A stretch of DNA of 32,000 nt from an uncultured Erysipelotrichaceae bacterium (GTDB lineage: Bacteria; Bacillota_I; Bacilli_A; Erysipelotrichales; Erysipelotrichaceae). Both the position numbers and the translations under genes were made by a program. Below the pieces are notes generated by a model. It had not been told where the DNA came from. It saw only the letters and a program-made list of their open reading frames with translations, and made no database searches. Positions 4,513 to 19,942 of the stretch are shown here, one piece after another. The stretch spans positions 18,411 to 50,410 of the forward strand of contig CAYWGS010000001.1 of NCBI GenBank assembly GCA_964457525.1, given 5' to 3'. Position 1 is the first letter of the stretch. Every line of letters starts with the position of its first letter.

Positions 4513-5448
4513 TTATTTATCTTGTTCGAATAGTGTTTTAGCGAGTAAGGTAAACATCTTGTCGCGATAACGGATGACTTCTTCATCTCTACCATTTGAG
4601 TAGTCGTAGAAACCTGACCCATTCTTAACACCTAATTTATTATTCTCTACACATTCTTTGATTAAACCAAATGGTTCTTTATAGTCGCATAGATCAGGGA
4701 AGGTATATTTGGAGATATTATTATGAATATCAAGTCCCCCTAAATCACAGATTTCAAATGGACCAAATACTGCATATCTAAAGCCGAGTGCATACTTCAT
4801 CACATCATCCACACCTTCAGGGGTTGTTATACCTTCTTGTACGATATAGAGTGCTTCACGAAGGATTGCTTGTTGGAGGCGATTCAATACAAAACTTGGC
4901 GCATCTTTTACCTTAACCGGTTTCTTTTCAAGTTTGAGCGCGAGTTCATAGACGATATCTACAGTAGAATCACTGGTCAATTGTCCTTGAATAACTTCAA
5001 TTAGGGGAATGATATGTGGAGGGTTCATCCAATGCATACCCGCAAATCGTTCTGGATACATAACAGCTTCCGCAATTTTAGTAATACTTAATCCAGAGGT
5101 GTTACTACATAAGATTGTATCTTCTCTTACAAGTTCAGATACTTCTTTCCAGAATTTATGCTTAACATCGATGTTCTCAAGAATCGCTTCAATTAAGAAG
5201 TCCACATCTTTAAACGATTGAACATCATTTGAATATGAAATACGTCCTTTTAATTCATTTGATTTTTCTACCGATACAATACCCGATTTAATCCATGTTT
5301 CTTGGTTAATATCGACAAGTCGTTTTGCCTTATCTAAAGCGGTCTCAAAAATATCATAGACTGTAACCTCATAATTAAACAATGCGAATGTTTGGGCAAT
5401 CGAAGCACCCATTGTGCCAGCCCCTGCAATACCTATTTTCTTGATCAT
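4513..5448 (-). CDS. 3-hydroxyacyl-CoA dehydrogenase-family NAD-dependent oxidoreductase
   Basis: It has an N-terminal Rossmann motif (KIGIAGAGTMGASIAQ), then SNTSGL and GMHWMNPPHIIPLIEV, followed by the C-terminal helical domain. The substrate is not assignable from sequence alone. Confidence 0.8.
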   Translation of the reverse strand: MIKKIGIAGAGTMGASIAQTFALFNYEVTVYDIFETALDKAKRLVDINQETWIKSGIVSVEKSNELKGRISYSNDVQSFKDVDFLIEAILENIDVKHKFWKEVSELVREDTILCSNTSGLSITKIAEAVMYPERFAGMHWMNPPHIIPLIEVIQGQLTSDSTVDIVYELALKLEKKPVKVKDAPSFVLNRLQQAILREALYIVQEGITTPEGVDDVMKYALGFRYAVFGPFEICDLGGLDIHNNISKYTFPDLCDYKEPFGLIKECVENNKLGVKNGSGFYDYSNGRDEEVIRYRDKMFTLLAKTLFEQDK

Positions 5449-5675: not shown

Positions 5676-6521
5676 ATGCGAACGGTTCATACGAACACAA
5701 TAAAAGATGCGGTTAAGAACTTATTTATCGAAGCGAATTTTGATATCGGCGAATCGGTATTTAAGGTAATAAAGGATTCCTTACAAAAAGAGAAATCACA
5801 ATTAGGTCAATCGGTCTTAGAAAAGATCTATGAGAATAATGAATACGCTAAAAAAGAAAGAATTGCGATTTGTCAGGATACAGGAATGTCTGTCGTCTTT
5901 ATTCAAATTGGACAAGAGGTTCATTTTGAAGGAGACTTCATTAATGATGCGATTAACCAAGGCGTAAGAGAAGCGTATGAAGAAGGATATCTACGCAAAT
6001 CAGTCGTAAGAGATCCACTATTTGAACGAGTGAATACCAAAGATAATACACCTGCAGTGATTCATACGAGTTTTATTCCTGGAGATAAAATAAAAATTGA
6101 AGTCATGCCAAAAGGCTTTGGTAGTGAAAATATGAGCACATTAAAAATGTTTCCACCATCAGCGGGTGTTGAAGGTGTTAAACAGTTTATCGTAGAAGCG
6201 ATTGAAAAAGCAGGTCCGAATGCTTGTCCACCCATGATTGTTGGGGTGGGAATTGGCGGTACCTTTGAATACGCCAGTTATCTAGCGAAGAAGGCTGTCT
6301 TAAGAGGCCCTGATCACAAACATCCTGATTCACGTTATCGTGACTTAGAAGAAGAGATACTAACGAGAGTGAATAAGTCAGGGATTGGACCAGCTGGATT
6401 AGGTGGACTCACAACTGCATTCGCTGTCAATATCGAAGTTTATCCAACACATATCGCATCGATTCCTGTAGCGATAAATATTAGTTGTCACGCATCTCGT
6501 CATGCGTCGATTGAAATCTAG
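5676..6521 (+). CDS. Class I (Fe-S) fumarate hydratase, alpha subunit (two-subunit FumA/TtdA type); candidate mesaconase
   Basis: 281 aa. It carries the CQDTGM motif and further Cys residues (GPNACPP, NISCHASRH) typical of Fe-S hydro-lyase alpha subunits. The RBS is AAGGAG. Confidence 0.85.
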   Translation: MRTVHTNTIKDAVKNLFIEANFDIGESVFKVIKDSLQKEKSQLGQSVLEKIYENNEYAKKERIAICQDTGMSVVFIQIGQEVHFEGDFINDAINQGVREAYEEGYLRKSVVRDPLFERVNTKDNTPAVIHTSFIPGDKIKIEVMPKGFGSENMSTLKMFPPSAGVEGVKQFIVEAIEKAGPNACPPMIVGVGIGGTFEYASYLAKKAVLRGPDHKHPDSRYRDLEEEILTRVNKSGIGPAGLGGLTTAFAVNIEVYPTHIASIPVAINISCHASRHASIEI

Positions 6522-6529
6522 GAGAAGTT

Positions 6530-7087
6530 ATGGAAGAACGAAAAGTACAATTGCCTCTTACTGAAGAGACGATTTTGTCTCTCAAAGCAGGAGATAGTGT
6601 TTTATTAACAGGGACAATGATTACAGGTCGAGATGCGGCTCATCAACGATTATTTGAAACAATTCAGAATCACCAACCCTTACCAATTAAACTTGAGGGT
6701 GAAGTCATTTACTATGTAGGACCCGCTCCAAGTAAACCAGGGATCCCTGTAGGATCTGCAGGACCTACATCCAGTTATCGTATGGATAAAGTTGCCCCAA
6801 CCCTTATGGCACATGGACTAAAAGGAATGATTGGTAAAGGAAATCGTAATACTGAAGTTATTGAAGCCATTAAGAAACATAAATGTGTTTACTTTGCGGC
6901 AATTGGTGGCTTAGGCGCAATGATCTCCAAAAGTATCTTAAGCAGTGAAGTATTATGTTATGAAGATTTAGGAACAGAGGCGATTCACCGTTTCTGGGTC
7001 AAAGATTTTCCAGCCATCGTTGTGATTGACGCAATGGGTAATAATTTATATGAAATTGAACAAGCGAAGTTCAGGGAGTCAGAATAA
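6530..7087 (+). CDS. Class I fumarate hydratase, beta subunit
   Basis: 185 aa. GDSVLLTGTMITGRDAAHQRL...YYVGPAPSKPG...GPTSSYRMD...GKG match the hydro-lyase beta subunit. It starts 8 nt after the alpha stop. Confidence 0.85.
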   Translation: MEERKVQLPLTEETILSLKAGDSVLLTGTMITGRDAAHQRLFETIQNHQPLPIKLEGEVIYYVGPAPSKPGIPVGSAGPTSSYRMDKVAPTLMAHGLKGMIGKGNRNTEVIEAIKKHKCVYFAAIGGLGAMISKSILSSEVLCYEDLGTEAIHRFWVKDFPAIVVIDAMGNNLYEIEQAKFRESE

Positions 7088-7089
7088 TC

Positions 7090-8265
7090 ATGTCAGATGT
7101 CTATCAAAGATCATTAGTTGCGCATAAAGAATGGAGAGGTAAACTTAGAACGGTTTTAAATGCCCCTCTTAACAATAAAGAAGAATTGAGTTTAGCTTAT
7201 ACACCGGGTGTTGCGGAGCCTTGTCGAGAAATTCATCGTAATCCTGAATCGGTTTATGATTATACTTGGGTGGGCAATACTGTTGCGGTTATTACCGATG
7301 GTACTGCGGTACTTGGTTTAGGTGATATTGGGCCTAAAGCAAGTTTACCTGTCATGGAAGGGAAATGTGCATTATTCAAATCTTTTGCGGCTATTGATGC
7401 GATTCCAATCGCACTTGATACCAAAGATCCAGATGAAATCATTCGCATCTGTAAAGCGTTAGCCCCAAGTTTTGGTGGAATCAACCTTGAAGATATTTCT
7501 GCGCCACGTTGTGTCAAAATTGAACGTGAACTCAAACAAAGTTTAAATATTCCAGTCTTCCATGATGATCAACACGGAACAGCGATTGTTGTAGCAGCAG
7601 GACTTATCAACGCACTCAAACTCATAAACAAAGAATTCCATGAGTTAAAAGTTGTGGTAAGTGGTGCGGGTGCAGCAGGTAGTTCAATTATGATGATGTT
7701 GCGGGATTTAGGAGTAAAGAATATTCTTGGGTTTAGAAAAGAAGGAATTATCTTAAAAGAAAATCATGATGATTTCTTAGTACAAGAACTCAGTGAGTTC
7801 ATTAATCCAGATCAACTCAATATTACTTTAAGAGAAGCGATGGTAAATGCGGATGTATTCATTGGTGTATCTGCTCCTCGTTTAGTGGATCAAGCGATGA
7901 TTAAGAGTATGAATCCGAAATCCATTGTATTCGCATTAGCAAACCCAGAACCTGAAATCAGTTATGAAGATGCGAAAGCAGCCGGTGCGTATATTATTGC
8001 GACAGGTCGTAGTGATTTCCCAAATCAAGTGAATAATGTTCTCGCATTTCCAGGTTTATTTAGAGGTGCATTGGATGCTAAGGCAACAAAGATCTCTGAA
8101 GAGATGAAGTTAGCAGCAGCTCAAGGTCTAGCGAGTCTTATCCAAGAAGATGAATTAAGTCCTGAAATGATTATTCCAAGCGTATTTGATAAACGAGTTA
8201 AGGATGTTGTGGCAGGTGCGGTAAAGGATGTCGCAATCAGACTCGGTTATGTTAGAAATGTTTAA
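7090..8265 (+). CDS. NAD(P)-dependent malic enzyme (short bacterial form)
   Basis: 391 aa. Motifs: LSLAYTPGVAEPC, VITDGTAVLGLGDIGP, GGINLEDI, FHDDQHGTA, SGAGAAG, ALANPEPE. It starts 2 nt after the beta-subunit stop. Confidence 0.9.
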   Translation: MSDVYQRSLVAHKEWRGKLRTVLNAPLNNKEELSLAYTPGVAEPCREIHRNPESVYDYTWVGNTVAVITDGTAVLGLGDIGPKASLPVMEGKCALFKSFAAIDAIPIALDTKDPDEIIRICKALAPSFGGINLEDISAPRCVKIERELKQSLNIPVFHDDQHGTAIVVAAGLINALKLINKEFHELKVVVSGAGAAGSSIMMMLRDLGVKNILGFRKEGIILKENHDDFLVQELSEFINPDQLNITLREAMVNADVFIGVSAPRLVDQAMIKSMNPKSIVFALANPEPEISYEDAKAAGAYIIATGRSDFPNQVNNVLAFPGLFRGALDAKATKISEEMKLAAAQGLASLIQEDELSPEMIIPSVFDKRVKDVVAGAVKDVAIRLGYVRNV

Positions 8266-8386: not shown

Positions 8387-8420
8387 AAATGATGCACTTT
8401 TTCGGGCATCATTTTTGTTT
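8387..8420 (+). terminator. Hairpin plus T-tract between the malic enzyme gene and the glutamate mutase operon (terminator or attenuator)
   Basis: AAATGATGC (8387-8395) pairs with GCATCATTT (8406-8414), a perfect 9-bp stem with a 10-nt loop, followed by TTGTTT. The RBS GGAGAA at 8425-8430 follows within 5 nt. Confidence 0.6.
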
Positions 8421-8432
8421 GAATGGAGAACT

Positions 8433-9353
8433 ATGACACTCAGTATTGAACAATTTAGATATGCGACTTACTTTGCGCCTAGAGGTAAAGTACGTATGCA
8501 AAACTTGGGAAACCAAGTCAGTCAAAAGTATTTACTACCGAATGACCGAATCATTGGGATTATTGGTGATGCAGGAAGTGGAAAATCACTCTTTATAAAA
8601 GGGATGTTTCCGGGTTTAGAACTCACAAACGATGATGATGGAATCAATGTAAGACCTTCACCCCTCATGCGTGATTATGCTCAACTCAATTATCGTGCTC
8701 ACACCTATCATATTGATGCTCGATTTGAAGCCGCATTTACCCAAATGTTTGAGCTTGTGGATGCGGTCAATCAAGCAGTACAAAATAAGAAACGTGTGGT
8801 AATTGAGCATTTTGATGAGATATATCCTTATCTCAATATGAATGCCGATTTACTAATTGGAATTGGTGAAGAAGTCATTGTATCTCGACCGAATTTATTT
8901 GGACCAATCCCAGAAGATATAAAGATCACAGTCTATAAATCCATTCATTATCGCAGAATGGCACATAGTGCAGAAGACTTACTCGTTCATGTTCTTCAAG
9001 AGGACTACAATATTACCTGTGATGGACATGGAGATGTTAAACATGGCTTTATCTTATCGTTTAATAAGAAACCTAAAGCATCCATCTCTGTTTTAGAAAA
9101 GAAAGTAAAGTTGTTAATAAAGGATGATTTAACCATTAGTTATCATGACTCTACTCATATCAAGATTGGGGATAAGATTGATCAGTATTGTACAGGACCA
9201 CGAACACACGTGAATCATACTGGTCAAATTAAGAACTTTAGATTATTGAAAGATTATATTTATGACCCACAAAAGAAGACCTATGAGTTGGTTGGAATTG
9301 TGAGTGATGAAACCATCGAAGATATTCATAAATTGAATCATTTTGCGGACTAA
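8433..9353 (+). CDS. Uncharacterised P-loop protein; first gene of the glutamate mutase operon
   Basis: 306 aa from the ATG at 8433 (RBS GGAGAA). The track's TTG at 8415 lies inside the hairpin. Walker A is GDAGSGKS (8565-8588), followed by ...[11 protein letters not shown], which is reminiscent of HPr-kinase/RapZ-type P-loops. A possible Walker B is [10 protein letters not shown] do not recognise the C-terminal 150 aa. Confidence 0.6.
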
Positions 9354-9361
9354 GGAGCACT

Positions 9362-9787
9362 ATGGAAAAGATCAATGTCGTAATTGGAGTGATTGGGGCA
9401 GATGTACATGCGGTAGGGAATCGTATTATTGATTATGCGTTTACCCAAGCAGGCTTTAATGTGATTAATCTTGGGGTCATGGTATCTCAGAAGGAATTTA
9501 TGGATGCGGCGATTGAAACCAACGCAAAGGCTATCATTGTATCCAGTTTATATGGCCATGGTGAATTGGATTGTCGCGGTATGGGGGATATGTTAAAAGA
9601 AGCTGGATTAGATAATGTATTACTTTATATCGGTGGAAATCTTGTGGTCGGTAAATCCGATTTCAATGAAGTAGAGAAACTCTTTAAATCGATGGGTTTT
9701 CATCGTGTCTATCCGCCTGGAGCAGATATCAATCAAGGCATTGAAGATCTTAAGCATGATTTAAATGAGAAGGGAATTTATGCCTAA
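9362..9787 (+). CDS. glmS: Glutamate mutase (methylaspartate mutase) sigma subunit, B12-binding
   Basis: 141 aa. The cobalamin base-off/His-on motif DxHxxG is present (DVHAVG, 9401-9418), and the protein shows close end-to-end resemblance to clostridial MutS/GlmS. The RBS AAGGAG overlaps the upstream stop. Confidence 0.93.
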
Positions 9788-11135
9788 TTTTTATCTATTT
9801 GATGTGGGTTCAACCTACACAAAAGGATGTATCGTAGATACAGATTCAGAAGAGATACTTGCGCAAGCAAGTGATTTTACGACTTCAAGTACGGATATAT
9901 CCATTGGAATCGAAAAAGTTAAACATAAAATGATGCAAGGACTAGAATCTATTCATATCGATAAAACCTATGTCTGTAGTTCTGCTAAAGGTGGTCTCAA
10001 GATGATTGCGATTGGACTTGTACCAGACCTAACCCTTAAAGCGGCTCGATTGGCTTGTTATAGCGCAGGGGCAAAAGTCATACAATCCTATTCGTTTGAA
10101 TTAAACCAGAAAGAATTAGATGAAATTGAATCCTCACAATGCGACATATTACTCTTAAGTGGTGGTACAGATGGTGGAAATACAAGTTCTGTTCGTCATA
10201 ATGCGAATCAACTCATCAAACTAAGATCACGCTTTCCAATCATCTATGCTGGTAATAAATCGTGTCAGGATGAGATAAGAAACATCTTAGAATCCAATGG
10301 ATTTGAATGCATACTATGTTCAAATGTAATGCCAAGTTATGGAGTATTAGAAGTTGATGAATGTAAGGCAAAAATACGTGAGTTGTTTCTAAAATCTATC
10401 GTTAAGGCAAAAGGATTATCAAAGCTCAGTGCAGTCGTCGATGAGATTGTACTCCCGACTCCATCCAGTGTATTTGAAGCACTTAAACTACTTTCCAAAG
10501 GAACATACAATGAATCAGGTTTAGGAGATTTAATGGCCATCGATATTGGTGGTGCGACAACCGATGTTTATAGTATGAATGAGAAACTCGTGATTAACGA
10601 AGAATTTGGTTATAAAGGACTTCAAGAGCCCATTGAGAAAAGAAGTGTTGAAGGAGATTTAGGCTTACGCTTTAGTGCTTCACATGTCTATGAATTGAAG
10701 GAAGAGATACATAATCCGATCTTTGATCAATACATACAGGATATAAAACACAATCCACATCTAACGTCTAATCTGGATTTAGATACACAACTCGCAAGTG
10801 CTTGTGTTGAAATTGCGACAGAACGTCATGTGGGCCGACTTGAAACGAGTTATACTCCTATGGGGATTAACTATTATCAAACGGGTAAGGATTGTAGAGA
10901 AGTTAAACAGTGTATTGGGATTGGTGGACCGATTATCTATAATCCAAACGCAAAAAGGATTTTAGAGAATTGTTTAATGAAGAGTAATCATAAGGAAGTT
11001 TTATTGCCAATACAGTGTGAATATTATATCGATAAAGATTATTGTATCAGTTGTTTAGGACTATTGGCTAAACAGTATCCGGATGTTGTGTTACGAATCT
11101 TGAAAAAGAAATTGGAGAAAATAGATCATGTATAA
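9780..11135 (+). CDS. glmL: Glutamate mutase accessory protein GlmL/MutL
   Basis: Start [16 protein letters not shown] (ASKHA-type phosphate-1 motif) with a later DIGGATTDV. It occupies the canonical position between the S and E subunits. Its ATG overlaps the glmS stop by 8 nt. Confidence 0.85.
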
Positions 11136-12585
11136 TCGTAAAATCCCATTGGATGAATTTCTTAAACAACGTGAAGAAGTGCTTAAACAATGGAATACTG
11201 GAAAAGATGTGGATCTTGAAGAAGCAATTGAATACCAAAAATCATTAGATGAATCAAAGCGTTTCAGTAATAAACTAGCTCAAGCCATTGAGAATAAAGA
11301 AACATTGATTCAACCAAGAGCAGGGGTTGCGCTTCCTAATGAACACATCAAACTTCTAAAAACACTACAGGATGAAGGGGGAGCTGATTTACTCCCAACA
11401 ACCATTGATAGTTATACGCGTCACAATCGATATGTGGAAGCACAAACAGGGATTGATGAAAGTATTCGTACCGGGAAATCTCTACTCAATGGCTTTCCAG
11501 CTGTAAATCATGGGGTACAAGTTTGTCGCTCCATCATCTCTTCACTGAATGTGCCCGTTCAAGTACGTCACGGAACACCGGATGCTCGACTCCTTGCGGA
11601 GATTACCTGTGCTGGTGGATTTACCTCTTTTGAAGGAGGCGGTATTTCATACAATATTCCTTATGGAAAAAACTACTCCTTAGAAAAAACCATTACAGAT
11701 TGGCAATATGTGGATCGTTTAATTGGTTACTATGAAGAAATGGGTGTAACGATTAATCGTGAACCATTTGGTCCATTAACAGGAACACTTGTTCCAGCGT
11801 GTATTTCACACAGTGTAGCGATCCTCGAAAGCTTACTTGCGGCTGAACAAGGGTGTAAGTGCATTACGGTAGGTTATGGACAATGTGGAAATCAGAACCA
11901 AGATATCGCCGCAATTCGTACGTTGGATAAATTAACCAAAGAATATTTAGCACGATTTGGCTTTTATGATGTAAGCGTATCAACTGTATTCCATCAATGG
12001 ATGGGAGGCTTTCCACAAGATGAAGCGAAAGCTTATGCAGTTATCAGTTGGGGTGCGAGTACAGCAGTATTATCCGGTGCCACAAAGGTAATTGTTAAAT
12101 CACCACACGAAGCCTTTGGAGTCCCAACCGCAGAAGCGAATGCGAATGGATTAAAAACGACTAAACAATTAACGTCCATGTTAAAGGATCAAGTCTTTAC
12201 AGAGACAAATGAAATTAAAGCAGAAATGGATATCATCGAGAAAGAAACACGCAGTATCATGGAAGCGGTGTTGAAACTCGGTGAGAATAACTTTGGACTC
12301 TGTGCAGTACGTGCATTTGAAGCTGGATTGATTGATGTTCCTTTTGCCCCAGCAACCTGCAATGCGGGAAAGATGTTGCCGGCGAGAGATAATAATGGCG
12401 CGATTCGTATCTATGAATTCGGGAATCTTCCATTCGATGAATCACTTAAAGAGTTCCATCGTCAGAAACTCCAAGAAAGAGCGGATGTGGAACGTAGACA
12501 AGTGAGCTTCCAAATGGTAATTGATGATATATATGCCGTTAGTAAAGGTCGTCTTGTAGGACGTCCAAGTAAGGGGAATGTATGA
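11128..12585 (+). CDS. glmE: Glutamate mutase epsilon (catalytic) subunit
   Basis: 485 aa. Long blocks match clostridial MutE/Glm[85 protein letters not shown]. It overlaps glmL by 8 nt. Confidence 0.95.
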
Positions 12586-13841
12586 AAATAATTGATGTTA
12601 TTAGTAGTTGTGGTAGAACGGGGTTTTTCTTTGATGATCAAAAAGCGATCAAAAAAGGGGCACAATCCGATGGGAACTTCTACTTGGGTAATCCTGTCAC
12701 AGAAGGCTTTACGCGAGTTAGACAAGCGGGAGAATCACTTACGATTATGCTTGTATTAGAAGATGGACAGGTCGCATTTGGGGATTGTTGCGCTGTGCAA
12801 TACAGTGGATGTGGTGGTCGTGATCCACTCTTCATCGCCTCAGATTTTCAAAAGATTGTACAAGATAGAATACGACCATTATTACTCAATCGTGAATTGA
12901 CTTCGTTTAAAGAACTTGCCTATGAATTTGACCATCTAGAACTTGATGGCAAACGAATCCATACCGCATTACGCTATGGCATTACTCAAGCACTCTTAGA
13001 TGCGGTCGCTAAATCCCAACATACTCAAATGGCTAATATTATTGCGAATGAATATCATACCAATGTTAGTGAACAACTTATCCCAATCTTTAGTCAAAGT
13101 GGGGATAATCGCTATGATAATGTGGATAAGATGATTCTTAAAGAAAGTGCTGTTCTTCCACATGGATTAATTAATCATGTTGAAACAAAGTTAGGTTATC
13201 AAGGTGAGAAATTACTTGAGTATGTTAAGTGGTTAAGAAAACGAATTGATGATTATCGTAATCATGAGGATTACAAACCGGTATTACACATCGATGTCTA
13301 TGGAACATTAGGCATTATATTTAAAGAAGATTATGATGCGATGGTGGATTATCTTAAAACATTAAGAGAAGCAAGTGGCCCCTATCATTTACGCATCGAA
13401 GGTCCAGTCGATTTTGATGATCGTGAAAAAACCATGATGGGTCTACAAATCATTACACGTATGTTAGATGAGCGTGGAATTGAATGTGAGATTGTCGCAG
13501 ATGAATGGTGTAATACCCTCGAAGATATTAAAGAATTTGCGGATAAAAAAGCAGGTCATATGGTTCAAATCAAAACACCTGATTTAGGTGGTATACAAAA
13601 TATTGTGGAAGCTGTGTTGTATTGTAAGGAAAAAGGAATTGGGGCCTATCAAGGTGGTACATGCAATGAAACTGATATCAGTGCTAAGGCATGTGTTCAT
13701 TGTGCTATGGCTACTCAACCTGTACAAATTCTCGCAAAACCGGGTATGGGTGTTGATGAAGGATACATGCTTGTTTATAACGAAATGAAACGTATTATCG
13801 CTCTTGAAACGATACGAAAGGAGCGTCATGAAAAGTATTAA
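12582..13841 (+). CDS. mal: 3-methylaspartate ammonia-lyase (methylaspartase)
   Basis: 419 aa. MKIIDV...[17 protein letters not shown]...[15 protein letters not shown]...[28 protein letters not shown] closely parallels C. tetanomorphum methylaspartase, an enolase-superfamily enzyme. An ATGA overlap joins it to glmE. Confidence 0.95.
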
Positions 13842-15180
13842 AATATTATCCACAACCGCTATTCTAGGGTATGGATTTCCAATGGCCAGTTTCGAAGCTG
13901 GGATGAAGAAGAATCCAGATTGTATTGCGGTTGATGCAGGATCAACCGATCCTGGTCCATATTATTTAGGTGCTGGGGTTTCCTTTACCGACTATTACGC
14001 AGTTAAACGTGACTTAGGCATCATGATTCAAGCAGGGATTGAACATCATGTGCCTGTGCTTGTAGGAACTGCAGGTGGTAGTGGTGCGAAACCACATTTA
14101 GATTGGACAATTAAGATTGTAAAAGAGATTGCGGAAGAAAATAATCTACATTTTAAGATGGCGATTATTGAAGCAGATATAGATAAGGAAATCTTATATA
14201 AAGCATTTGATGAAGGTAAGATTAAACCTCTACATCCAGCACCTGAATGTACAAAAGATGACATAAAAGATTCAACCTATATCGTCGGTCAAATGGGTGT
14301 AGAGCCTTTTATCGAAGCGCTCAAACAAGATGTGGATGTGATTATTGCAGGAAGAGCATATGATCCAACGGTGTTTGCGGCTTTACCTATTCTTCGTGGA
14401 TTTGATCCTGGTTTAGCCTTGCATTGTGGAAAGATTCTAGAATGTGCAGCGATTGCCTCAACTCCAGGTAGTGGTAGTGATTGTATGTTTGGAACAATCT
14501 ATGAAGATTCATTTGTGTTAGAGACCCTTAATCCAGCGCGTAAGTGTACAACACTCAGTGTTAGTGCACATACACTCTATGAAAAAACCAATCCATATAT
14601 CTTACCAGGACCGGGAGGAACCATTGATTTGCATAACACAACCTTTACTCAACTCAATGAAAACCAAGTTGAAGTTAAAGGAAGTGTTTATATTCCATCC
14701 AATCCATATACCATTAAACTCGAAGCAGCGAAGTGTGTAGGCTATCGCACCGTAAGTATAGCTGGAGTACGAGATTCCATCTTTATTCGTGAGATTGATT
14801 CTATAATTACTGGAGTTGAACAACGTGTTAAAGATAACTTCAAAGACTTAAAAGATTATCATCTAAACTTCAAAGTCTATGGTAAGAATGGAGTGATGGG
14901 TGATCTTGAACCCATCAAAGAAATTCATTCCCATGAATTATGTATCGTAATTGATGCGGTAGCTCAAAGCCAAGAAGTAGCGAATACCATTTGTAGTTTT
15001 GCGAGAAGTACGATGCTACATTATGGTTATGAAGGAAGAATCGCAACAGCAGGTAATCTTGCATTCCCATATTCACCTTCTGATTTTAAAGTAGGTGCTG
15101 TGTATAATTTTAGTTTGTATCATTTAATTGAAGTAAGCGATCCCGTTAATCTATTCAAACAAACGATCGTAGAATTGTGA
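13828..15180 (+). CDS. Uncharacterised protein, tentatively AtuA/DUF1446-like
   Basis: 450 aa from the ATG at 13828, after AAGGAG at 13818-13823. It overlaps the mal stop by 14 nt. The size and its pairing with a roughly 100-aa DUF4387-like partner suggest the AtuA-type family. The assignment is from memory, not from a search. Confidence 0.5.
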   Translation: MKSIKILSTTAILGYGFPMASFEAGMKKNPDCIAVDAGSTDPGPYYLGAGVSFTDYYAVKRDLGIMIQAGIEHHVPVLVGTAGGSGAKPHLDWTIKIVKEIAEENNLHFKMAIIEADIDKEILYKAFDEGKIKPLHPAPECTKDDIKDSTYIVGQMGVEPFIEALKQDVDVIIAGRAYDPTVFAALPILRGFDPGLALHCGKILECAAIASTPGSGSDCMFGTIYEDSFVLETLNPARKCTTLSVSAHTLYEKTNPYILPGPGGTIDLHNTTFTQLNENQVEVKGSVYIPSNPYTIKLEAAKCVGYRTVSIAGVRDSIFIREIDSIITGVEQRVKDNFKDLKDYHLNFKVYGKNGVMGDLEPIKEIHSHELCIVIDAVAQSQEVANTICSFARSTMLHYGYEGRIATAGNLAFPYSPSDFKVGAVYNFSLYHLIEVSDPVNLFKQTIVEL

Positions 15181-15187
15181 GGAACGT

Positions 15188-15505
15188 ATGAAACATAAAC
15201 TCATAGATTTAGCGAAAGTGATTCGTTCTAAGAATTCAGGTCCTTATGAAATTACCTTTGATATCATCTTCAAAGACCGTGAAACCTTTGAAATCATGTG
15301 TCAACACAAGTTTATTAACGAAAAGTTGATTTCAGAACTTTACCATATTCCTGAATCCGATGTGATTAATATTATTGAATTTGTCCCTGCACAAGCGATT
15401 AAGGCAACCATTGTTCGTCCAATGTGTAGCGGTGATATTCGTGAAACAGATGTTTATGGTGCTCAACAACATGCGCCACTTCTTGATTTAGAATTTGATT
15501 ACTAA
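15188..15505 (+). CDS. Uncharacterised small protein, tentatively DUF4387-like (partner or C-terminal module of AtuA-type proteins)
   Basis: 105 aa. VIRSKNSGPYEITFDIIFKDRETFE matches my recollection of the DUF4387 signature. It starts 7 nt after the upstream stop, with the RBS GAGGAA overlapping that stop. Confidence 0.5.
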   Translation: MKHKLIDLAKVIRSKNSGPYEITFDIIFKDRETFEIMCQHKFINEKLISELYHIPESDVINIIEFVPAQAIKATIVRPMCSGDIRETDVYGAQQHAPLLDLEFDY

Positions 15506-15529
15506 CCATCCTTAGGATGGTTTTTGTTT
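15504..15529 (+). terminator. Rho-independent terminator ending the glutamate mutase operon
   Basis: AACCATCC (15504-15511) pairs with GGATGGTT (15515-15522), followed by TTTTGTTT. It begins within the stop codon of the last gene. Confidence 0.75.
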
Positions 15530-15614
15530 ACAATTATGTTTACATTGAGATGAAATATTATTTACAAAAGTGTTTACAATATTTCTTTACTTTGTTTACA
15601 AAAGTGTTTACAAT
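15525..15614 (+). repeat. Array of TGTTTACA boxes, including a 20-bp perfect direct repeat, upstream of the Fic gene
   Basis: TGTTTACA occurs at 15525, 15537, 15571, 15593 and 15605, with the variant TATTTACA at 15559. TTTACAAAAGTGTTTACAAT occurs identically at 15561-15580 and 15595-15614, a 34-bp period. Confidence 0.8.
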
Positions 15615-15638: not shown

Positions 15639-16820
15639 ATGATTGATGAGTACCTTGATTTAACGAGTAAGAGAATATATCCTTCGAAAAAAGAATGGTT
15701 TTTTAAATATGGTAAACATGGAAATGAATATCAGAAATTATTAGAGTATAAGAAAACAAATCTAACTCAAATAGATTTATATACAACAGAGGGAAGTATT
15801 TATTTTAACCGTGATTATATTCAGTCGTTTGTAAAGGAGTATTATCAGACTCAAGATTTAGGGATAGACTCTCTTATCCATTTTTCAGAAACATTTGAAG
15901 ATATGTTAATTTTTAGTGAAGTTGAAGGAACACTTGAGATTGAAGGGATAAAAACATCAAAAAAGAAAATTGAAGATGTCCTTTCAAAGGATACGTATGA
16001 TTCAAATGAGCAAATAATTGTAAATATGAAGAATGGGATCGATTTCATTTTTGAGAATGAAATAACAGAGAAGAATATATATGAACTTTATAAAATATTA
16101 TCTTTTAACAGTCTAAAAGAAGATGAAATAATACAGGATGGTTACTATCGTAATTCAGGTGTAGATATAATTGGGAAATATGGTGAGATCAGTGATTCTG
16201 GGGTAGATGCTAAGAACTTAGAAAAGTGGATGAAACGCTTTGTAGACTTTATTCAAGAGTCTATGTCAGAGTTAAATAGTTTAACGTATATCATGCCGCA
16301 CATCATACATTATTATGTTATTTACTTACATCCGTATTACGATTTTAATGGAAGAATGGCTCGAATGATTGCTTATTGGTATATCGTAAAATGCCATCAC
16401 ATTAAAGATAAGATGCCAGTTTATAGCGAGGCTATTAATTATAATTCTCAGACAAAAGCATTGTATTATAAAGCCATCGAAAACGCGCGTGAAGATGATA
16501 ATGATATAACCTTCTTTATTGAGATGATGTTTAAATTAGGGACTCGATTTATAGATGTCTATATCAAACTAGATAAGATTGAAATACGAAGTAGAAGAAA
16601 TAAAATGATACTAACTAAGAACGAAATAAGCCTATTAAAATCGATTCTTCTTCATGTTGGGACATCAGAATATTTCACATGGGAAGATGTTTATGCGTAT
16701 GATAAAGCACAATATACAAAACAGTACTATTTTAAGTTATTGAATTCGTTGAAAGATAAAAAAATCGTTGAAATAGATATAAAAAATAGAGTTTATTTCT
16801 ATAAACTAGTTGAAATTTGA
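15639..16820 (+). CDS. Fic/DOC-family protein with an N-terminal inhibitory-helix motif and a C-terminal wHTH-like tail
   Basis: 393 aa. The Fic core is HPYYDFNGRMAR (16329-16364), compared with the canonical HPFx(D/E)GNGRxxR. TLEIEG matches the (S/T)xxxE(G/N) auto-inhibition motif. The RBS is GTGAGG. The gene is visibly more AT-rich than its neighbours. Confidence 0.8.
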   Translation: MIDEYLDLTSKRIYPSKKEWFFKYGKHGNEYQKLLEYKKTNLTQIDLYTTEGSIYFNRDYIQSFVKEYYQTQDLGIDSLIHFSETFEDMLIFSEVEGTLEIEGIKTSKKKIEDVLSKDTYDSNEQIIVNMKNGIDFIFENEITEKNIYELYKILSFNSLKEDEIIQDGYYRNSGVDIIGKYGEISDSGVDAKNLEKWMKRFVDFIQESMSELNSLTYIMPHIIHYYVIYLHPYYDFNGRMARMIAYWYIVKCHHIKDKMPVYSEAINYNSQTKALYYKAIENAREDDNDITFFIEMMFKLGTRFIDVYIKLDKIEIRSRRNKMILTKNEISLLKSILLHVGTSEYFTWEDVYAYDKAQYTKQYYFKLLNSLKDKKIVEIDIKNRVYFYKLVEI

Positions 16821-18808: not shown

Positions 18809-19942
18809 ATGATAAAAGACGAAAGTTTGTATATTGCAGGTCCACTTTGTTTTTATAAAAATGGATATGGCATGTGGGATGCATTGAAAAAGGAAGCAGA
18901 GTTTTATGGATTTACTGTCGCTCTTCCTAATAATAATGTTTTAGAATATGAAGAAGGTAATAAGCGTCAATTCAGTGCTGCGATTTTTAAGAATTGTAGA
19001 GATTCAATCAATAAAACAACCTGTCTTATTGTTAACTTAGAAAACTATCGTGGATTAGTCCCAGATGGTGGTTCGGTTTATGAAATGGGTATGGCATACG
19101 CTAAGGGTGCTAAACTCTATGGATTTACACGTGATAAACGACCTGCTCGTATGAAATATGGACATGGTAAATATGTGGGTAATGATATTATTGATCTTGA
19201 TGGTCGTAAACTTGCACATAAAGATTTAGCATTTGGACCATGTATTGTTGGTTCTACAAAGATTGTGGAAGGTAAGTTTGGTGATGCACTTCAAATGTTT
19301 ATGACAGATATTGAAGAGGATTCAAAACTCAAAGCATCTCGTAATGTGTTTGTGCTTGATGCGGATCCACAAGTAACCGTTGAACCTTCTGATAAGCCTA
19401 GAGTCTATCTTTCTACTTTTGAACGTTATGATAATGACGCAAAAGAGAAACTAGAATCAATGAAGAAAATTTGTGAGAAATATGGATTTATTGGCATTAG
19501 TCCACTCGATGATGCGCCAATGGTTGAGAGAATAAACAGTGATGATGTGATGGAAATGGCGTATAACCAATTTGATCACTTCCAACAACACGTACGCAAT
19601 TGTGATATTATCCTAGCGAACTTAAATAATTACCATGGTTATGAACCAAACGATGATGTTTCATTTGAATGTGGAATGGCATTCCAATTAGGTAAGAAGT
19701 GTTTTGGTTACCTAGATGAGGTTAAACCAATGATTGATTTAGTTCCAAATCGTGGTGAAGCATTTGAATATCGTGATTTAAATGATATGAATGTTGAGAA
19801 CTTTGCGAATCCATTGAATTTAATGTTTGGGGCATCTTTCACATTGTTTGAAGGTAAATTTGAAGAAGCAATCAAGCAAATGGCTGAAGCATTAGTTGAT
19901 TTTAAGCTTGCGGATGATTTAGTTCCTCCAGTACTTGACTAA
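18809..19942 (+). CDS. Tandem-duplicated nucleoside 2-deoxyribosyltransferase-like protein
   Basis: 377 aa with two homologous halves. LYIAGPL...LENYRGLVPDGGSVYEMGMAYAKGAKLYGF...VEGKFGDALQMF aligns with VYLSTF...LNNYHGYEPNDDVSFECGMAFQLGKKCFGY...FEGKFEEAIKQM. Both halves keep the Asp...Glu-x-Gly core seen in Lactobacillus NDT (D-x-G-x-x-M-E-L-G-Y-A). Confidence 0.7.
   Translation: MIKDESLYIAGPLCFYKNGYGMWDALKKEAEFYGFTVALPNNNVLEYEEGNKRQFSAAIFKNCRDSINKTTCLIVNLENYRGLVPDGGSVYEMGMAYAKGAKLYGFTRDKRPARMKYGHGKYVGNDIIDLDGRKLAHKDLAFGPCIVGSTKIVEGKFGDALQMFMTDIEEDSKLKASRNVFVLDADPQVTVEPSDKPRVYLSTFERYDNDAKEKLESMKKICEKYGFIGISPLDDAPMVERINSDDVMEMAYNQFDHFQQHVRNCDIILANLNNYHGYEPNDDVSFECGMAFQLGKKCFGYLDEVKPMIDLVPNRGEAFEYRDLNDMNVENFANPLNLMFGASFTLFEGKFEEAIKQMAEALVDFKLADDLVPPVLD

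Follow-up and report, generated by a model that had tools for sequence, protein, structure and literature searches.

Which reaction is catalysed by the products of the last two genes of a methylaspartate operon in an uncultured Erysipelotrichaceae bacterium? The operon lies on a stretch of 32,000 nucleotides (nt) from contig CAYWGS010000001.1 (assembly GCA_964457525.1, positions 18,411 to 50,410 of the forward strand), hereafter called the window. The two genes follow mal, which encodes methylaspartate ammonia-lyase (12582-13841, + strand; TIGR01502 equivalog, 587 bits; PF07476, PF05034). The first of them (13828-15180, + strand) encodes a protein of 450 amino acids (aa) and the second (15188-15505, + strand) a protein of 105 aa. 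A preliminary description had assigned these to the DUF1446 (AtuA) and DUF4387 families. It considered the AtuA-type family to be without an established biochemical function, and it proposed that the pair acts on mesaconate, citramalate, methylaspartate or a derivative. Our analysis indicates that the two genes most probably encode CmlA and CmlB, the large and the small subunit of a citramalate lyase that is independent of coenzyme A (CoA) and acyl carrier protein (ACP), and that would cleave (S)-citramalate to pyruvate and acetate (probability roughly 0.88). Orthology, fold, synteny and the lack of a classical lyase in the window are shown here, while the activity itself comes from the work of others.

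Identity of the gene pair

A phmmer search of the PDB sequences matched residues 2-441 of CmlA to residues 3-441 of chain A of entries 9ERQ and 9EVF (E = 3.6e-168), a chain titled "Citramalate lyase, subunit A (cmlA)". The whole length of CmlB (residues 1-105) matched chain B of 9ERQ, titled "Citramalate lyase, subunit B (cmlB)" (E = 1.4e-27). An AlphaFold (AF2) model of CmlA, calculated with 15 homologues as input, had a predicted local distance difference test (pLDDT) score of 82. In Foldseek, this model aligned with 9evf_A at a template modelling (TM) score of 0.90 and 57% identity. Since 9evf_A was its sole PDB match below E = 1e-3, the CmlA fold was without a solved relative before that deposit. 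Both entries were released on 2025-10-08, and 9EVF carries the title 'Citramalate lyase - ADP - pyruvate complex' (ADP, adenosine diphosphate). As homologues of CmlA and CmlB are found together in one PDB entry, the homologous pair forms a complex.

The enzyme has already been used as a tool. CmlAB, encoded by cmlAB and obtained as a gift of the Berg laboratory, allowed mesaconate-dependent growth of an Escherichia coli acetyl-CoA auxotroph, as confirmed by isotope labelling, and acetyl-CoA synthetase (Acs) was up-regulated in evolved strains with CmlAB (bioRxiv 10.64898/2026.01.16.699985). In 2015, Kronen & Berg had described a DUF1446 gene downstream of mal in Enterobacteriaceae and in Dictyoglomus. 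They noted that annotations often give this mal-linked gene as methylaspartate ammonia-lyase by mistake, and that there was at the time no explanation for what becomes of citramalate (PMC4682846). The view that AtuA-type proteins have no established biochemical function has thus been overtaken by the released structures and by the use of the enzyme in the preprint. The suggestion that the present locus offers the most direct handle on the function of the family is likewise out of date, the linkage of mal and DUF1446 having been published in 2015. From the list of substrates first proposed, the homologues in 9ERQ and 9EVF single out citramalate, and the other listed compounds are disfavoured.

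Family membership was confirmed for both proteins. The 450-aa protein reached 73.3 bits against the Pfam model PF07287 (AtuA; gathering cutoff 22.8), a partial match whose best stretch covers residues 240-396, and the 105-aa protein reached 137.1 bits against PF14330 (DUF4387; gathering cutoff 27). No model in NCBIfam matched CmlA or CmlB.

The gene boundaries agreed with those first described. The start codon of cmlA, ATG at 13828, lies within mal, resulting in a 14-nt overlap with the mal 3' end at 13841, and has an AGGAG 7 nt upstream. A mechanical list of open reading frames (ORFs) puts the start at TTG 13804; the ATG is favoured because the closest homologues are also 450 aa long at 100% coverage. 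The cmlB gene starts 7 nt past the stop codon of cmlA, with a GAGGA upstream. Only thereafter comes an intrinsic-terminator-like hairpin with a T-run, which closes the operon (15504-15531, + strand). Its 8-bp stem with four GC pairs (15504-15522) is followed by TTTGTTT, its minimum free energy is -9.9 kcal/mol (z = -2.5), and it was the top-listed terminator-like site on the + strand between positions 5000 and 17500. The overlap of mal with cmlA and the short gap between cmlA and cmlB would favour the co-production of both subunits with the upstream enzymes.

Pathway and conserved neighbourhoods

From its gene content, the window is predicted to encode the complete route by which glutamate yields pyruvate, acetate and ammonia. 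Glutamate would be converted to 3-methylaspartate by GlmS, the B12-binding subunit of glutamate mutase (9362-9787, + strand; PF02310, 50.8 bits), and GlmE, the E subunit of glutamate (methylaspartate) mutase (11128-12585, + strand; PF06368, 737 bits), together with the glutamate mutase accessory protein GlmL/MutL (9765-11135, + strand; PF13941, 476 bits). Mal would then form mesaconate. A candidate mesaconase, MesAB, would turn mesaconate into (S)-citramalate, and CmlAB would release pyruvate and acetate from the latter. MesAB is a two-subunit class I (Fe-S) fumarase-type hydratase (5676-7087, + strand, with genes at 5676-6521 and 6530-7087; PF05681, 382 bits, and PF05683, 197 bits; NF004885, NF005310), and class I fumarases act as mesaconases (PMC4682846).

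A gene for an NAD(P) malic enzyme (SfcA-like; 7090-8265, + strand; PF00390, PF03949) stands after mesAB. Between it and the gene of a 306-aa protein, a hairpin with a U-run (8389-8420; -12.9 kcal/mol, z = -3.4) may separate the mesAB-malic enzyme unit from the glm-mal-cmlAB unit, or may act as an attenuator. The latter unit comprises seven genes (8433-15505), in the order 306-aa protein, glmS, glmL, glmE, mal, cmlA and cmlB. A search of the window with Rfam gave no match to a riboswitch or to any other RNA family, and hence there is no B12 riboswitch before glmS.

The classical lyase domains CitD (ACP), CitE (HpcH/HpaI-type beta subunit) and CitF (alpha subunit) were not detected by Pfam in CmlA, in CmlB or in the scanned ORFs of at least 90 aa of the 32-kb window. 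Because genes of this type are missing there, CmlAB is the sole candidate in the window for citramalate cleavage. The classical CitDEF-type citramalate/citrate lyase (EC 4.1.3.22 / 4.1.3.6; Clostridium tetanomorphum) has the same net reaction and the same place in the pathway as CmlAB, but the two are unrelated in sequence and architecture. The classical enzyme has three subunits, including an ACP with a phosphoribosyl-dephospho-CoA prosthetic group, and its activation needs CitC/X/G. Its genes, too, are clustered with glm and mal in clostridia (PMC4682846).

For comparison with other genomes, one genome per species was scanned. This yielded 578 relatives, and the best 80 loci were examined by tblastn with the window proteins; mal was counted in the 74 loci with at least 1.4 kb upstream of cmlA. 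The 80 loci were from Erysipelotrichaceae (77-93% identity), Clostridia, Vallitalea, Spirochaetes, Bacteroidota, Desulfo-genera and others. A cmlB homologue was found after cmlA at a median gap of ~19 nt. The cmlA-cmlB arrangement is conserved and not a chance pattern, being present in all 80 of the related loci. Of these, 58 had a glmE gene and 26 a MesAB-type hydratase.

Co-occurrence with mal, for which the preliminary description had looked to related genomes, was found in 64 of the 74 loci, with direct adjacency on the same strand in 52. It is not obligatory, since mal was absent in the other 10, several of which keep a mesaconase-type hydratase. Six of these 10 had a MesA-type match, five at 51-56% identity and one (locus L070) at only 35%. 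One mal-less locus, in Desulforamulus putei (L057), has the order TRAP transporter DctPQM-cmlA-cmlB...sigma-54 activator-MesA-MesB. It looks like a module for the uptake and cleavage of mesaconate or citramalate that works without glutamate mutase. Such an arrangement is predicted by a citramalate lyase, and not by a methylaspartate-specific function.

The full pathway is found in one row in Prevotella nigrescens, as glmS-glmL-glmE-mal-cmlA-cmlB-(314-aa protein)-mesA-mesB. In E. coli O157:H7 Sakai (NC_002695), the interval between sucD and cydA carries glmS-glmL-glmE-mal-ECs_0760-ECs_0759-transporter-fumA(FumD)-cobA on one strand. ECs_0760 (456 aa) scored 970 bits against 9ERQ_A. The window CmlA is 59% identical to ECs_0760, and the window CmlB is 45% identical to ECs_0759 (105 aa). 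A blastn search of the window pair against E. coli genomes gave no match, the DNA being too diverged. In RefSeq (locus L081, NC_002695.2, 16934-18618), ECs_0760 is labelled "3-methylaspartate ammonia-lyase" and ECs_0759 "acyl-CoA synthetase". Many CmlA homologues from metagenomes were seen to carry the same wrong name as ECs_0760.

The enterobacterial CmlAB (Raoultella planticola 9ERQ and 9EVF; E. coli O157) thus has in common with the window pair the subunit sizes (450-456 aa and 105 aa), homology over the full length, the fold, the order glmS-glmL-glmE-mal-cmlA-cmlB and clade-specific glycine-rich motifs. Several differences were found. The window host is of the low-GC Erysipelotrichaceae type, unlike the enterobacterial hosts. 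Its cmlA overlaps mal, whereas in E. coli O157 there is a 3-nt gap, and its candidate mesaconase, a class I hydratase, has two subunits and is encoded upstream, whereas that of E. coli O157 is the single-chain FumD encoded downstream. Unlike the E. coli O157 island, the window operon has the additional 306-aa protein, with P-loop and AlaX-like parts, and the CobA and transporter genes of the island are absent within the window.

Two of the glycine-rich motifs, GTAGGSG (residues 80-86) and PGSGSDC (213-219), were kept in CmlA from the window, E. coli, Prevotella, Klebsiella and Desulforamulus, and were lost in a 43%-identical paralogue from Variovorax. The window CmlA contains all of the clade-invariant motifs. 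The Variovorax paralogue belongs to the AtuA/DUF4387 family at large. Family members from Variovorax and Cupriavidus have the same adjacent Pfam pair and the family-wide invariant residues in common with CmlA, but they are 32-43% identical and are without the two loops. They adjoin tricarboxylate-transporter binding proteins, an RraA-family protein and a thiamine pyrophosphate (TPP) enzyme, and they probably have other substrates than CmlAB. On the Variovorax plasmid NZ_LR594673.1 (locus L083, 4281-9356), the 43%-identical pair has as neighbours a TctC-type binding protein, a TPP enzyme and a protein of the RraA family, to which 4-hydroxy-4-methyl-2-oxoglutarate aldolases belong. This context suggests that other members of the family cleave other hydroxy-di/tricarboxylates.

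A further cmlAB-like pair, with 61% identity, was observed on Klebsiella pneumoniae plasmid NZ_CP055107.1 (locus L082, 7980-16039), and occurs on IncF-type plasmids of Klebsiella. Its neighbours are two aldehyde dehydrogenases, a glucose 1-dehydrogenase, an alcohol dehydrogenase, a class I fumarate hydratase and a LysR regulator, with no mal or glm. It is possible that this plasmid-borne cluster channels a different substrate towards mesaconate or citramalate.

Genomic context alone cannot separate the intermediates of the pathway as substrates, and the Klebsiella and Variovorax relatives are found in other contexts. A pair acting on mesaconate, 3-methylaspartate or beta-methylmalate would fit these observations. 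We nevertheless hold such a function to be very improbable, for the crystal of the close homologue contains pyruvate, and that homologue bears the name citramalate lyase. In addition, Mal and MesAB are already dedicated to other steps, and citramalate cleavage is the one step for which the window offers no other candidate.

The neighbourhoods also bear on the family name. In Pfam and RefSeq this name refers to acyclic terpene utilisation, and it is the only point in favour of a literal role of that kind, as in Pseudomonas AtuA. The Pseudomonas atu cluster, from which the Pfam family takes its name, has atuB-H type genes (for geranyl-CoA carboxylase subunits, an acyl-CoA dehydrogenase and a hydratase), none of which were found in the window, where the neighbours are glutamate-fermentation genes. 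Atu-type neighbours (biotin carboxylase, acyl-CoA dehydrogenase, enoyl-CoA hydratase) were absent from the window and from the four neighbourhoods read, namely E. coli, Prevotella, L057 and L087/L088. Moreover, the match to the Pfam AtuA model is partial, and the host is an anaerobic fermenter of the Erysipelotrichaceae type. A terpene role is contradicted by the genomic context, and its probability is negligible.

Fold, invariant residues and the reaction

In the N-terminal half of the CmlA model (about residues 1-215), strands and helices alternate seven or eight times. Among the weak fold matches of this half were TIM (triosephosphate isomerase) barrels, for example thiamin-phosphate synthase and GH31, and it may represent a repeated beta-alpha domain that is TIM-barrel-like. 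The modelled C-terminal half resembles the dimerisation domain of M20 amidohydrolases. Residues D36, D41, R61, D62, R176, D179, H199, K202, E205 and C206 were invariant even in the 43%-identical Variovorax paralogue, and so were H248, E252, R307, D316, E370, R393, H398 and N410. In the model, the invariant acidic, basic and Cys residues at strand ends would be compatible with an active site of the retro-aldol type in which pyruvate is bound, with presumptive roles for the individual residues.

The ADP in the title of 9EVF raises the question of how citramalate is cleaved. With the same enzyme family and the same substrate, the reaction might be nucleotide-dependent. Adenosine triphosphate (ATP) would then activate the enzyme or the substrate, for example by way of citramalyl or acetyl phosphate or of an acyl-enzyme on a conserved Cys, mirroring the thioester activation in classical citrate/citramalate lyases, and the ADP of the crystal would be a product or a cofactor and not a bystander. 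Several features of CmlA are in line with this. The invariant glycine-rich loops DAGSTDPGPYYLG, GTAGGSG and PGSGSDC have low pLDDT, as flexible phosphate-binding loops often do, and Cys206 is invariant even in the 43% paralogue. On general chemical grounds, an acetate carbanion leaves poorly unless it is activated, but isocitrate lyase offers a precedent in which a carboxylate-stabilised carbanion leaves without activation. According to the preprint, which makes no mention of ATP, citramalate is cleaved directly into pyruvate and acetate; its authors explain why one selection strain failed by a thermodynamic push-back from 20 mM acetate, and the up-regulation of Acs in the evolved strains is a requirement if the product is free acetate (bioRxiv 10.64898/2026.01.16.699985). 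Taken together, we consider nucleotide dependence unlikely, and favour a CoA- and ACP-independent lyase that cleaves citramalate directly.

Some points weigh against this assignment. Citramalate lyase activity is drawn from PDB entry titles and from the use of the enzyme in one preprint. The window pair is 57-59% (CmlA) and 45% (CmlB) identical to the characterised enterobacterial enzyme, so that its activity is assigned by homology. With ADP bound in 9EVF, the chemistry may differ from a plain lyase reaction. The Klebsiella plasmid pair, at 61% identity, stands in a different context, and an identity of ~60% is by itself no proof of the same physiological role. Finally, a CitDEF-type lyase could exist elsewhere in the genome, outside the window.

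The 306-aa protein and the meaning of the locus

The seven-gene unit probably begins with the gene of the 306-aa protein (8433-9353, + strand), whose start at ATG 8433 fits the 306-aa length of its homologues. No library family passed its cutoff for this protein, which carries the Walker A motif GDAGSGKS. It is strongly conserved, with 46-57% identity to relatives outside Erysipelotrichaceae, across Bacillota and Bacteroidota. The motifs ELTNDDxG, EHFD and GIGEEV are invariant, and there is a His/Asp/His-Cys/His set in the C-terminal half. An AF2 model (pLDDT 84.5) gave Foldseek matches at ~1e-5, the N-terminal half resembling the TsaE/YjeE P-loop ATPase (1htw, 6n9a_E) and the C-terminal half the AlaX/AlaRS editing domain (9iuw, 2e1b, 1wnu). 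A profile of the family searched against PDB sequences returned P-loop noise only, and fold comparison alone was informative. NCBI names for the homologues include 'alanine-tRNA synthetase second additional domain-containing protein', TsaE and 'lantibiotic ABC transporter'. The E. coli protein ECs_0767 (314 aa) was considered as a homologue and rejected, as the two are not homologous.

A homologue of the 306-aa protein was found in 52 of the 80 cmlAB loci, directly after cmlB in 36 and before glmS, as in the window, in 11. In Desulforamulus ferrireducens (CP019698.1, locus L085, 648-8972) it comes after glmS-mutL-glmE-mal and, in the place of cmlAB, an HgdB-like (HGD-D-like) protein, a BcrAD/BadFG-type activator and a metallo-beta-lactamase (MBL)-fold protein, and there is no cmlAB within 8 kb on either side. 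This glm-mal cluster weakens the idea of a specific tie between the 306-aa protein and CmlAB. Because the protein is present there without cmlAB, it accompanies the pathway and is not bound strictly to CmlAB. The arrangement also hints at a different downstream fate for mesaconate in D. ferrireducens. Tentatively, the TsaE-like/AlaX-like fusion might be an accessory factor of the methylaspartate pathway, for example an ATP-dependent activator, a repair factor or a regulator of CmlAB or of glutamate mutase; this is possible but doubtful. If it does act on CmlAB, the ADP in the CmlAB crystal could reflect that link.

Two other features of the window were observed downstream of the operon. Between the cmlB terminator and a gene for a Fic-domain protein (15639-16820) lie three copies of the 23-nt unit TTGTTTACAAAAGTGTTTACAAT at 34-nt spacing, with six TGTTTACA boxes (15524-15614), which could be an operator array. 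A 377-aa protein encoded at 18809-19942 (+ strand) matches nucleoside 2-deoxyribosyltransferase (PF05014) in two of its stretches, suggesting that its architecture is duplicated in an unusual way.

On every feature tested, the window pair is a further member of the CmlAB family, and the question of the function of this family is already answered. Pfam, NCBIfam and RefSeq names still read "AtuA family", "DUF4387", "3-methylaspartate ammonia-lyase" or "acyl-CoA synthetase". The main value of the finding is therefore the correction of annotations. Homologues at E <= 1e-10 number 6,536, and thousands of them could be relabelled. With those linked to mal relabelled, the methylaspartate pathway would be complete in metabolic reconstructions of anaerobes from gut and sediment that are without CitDEF.

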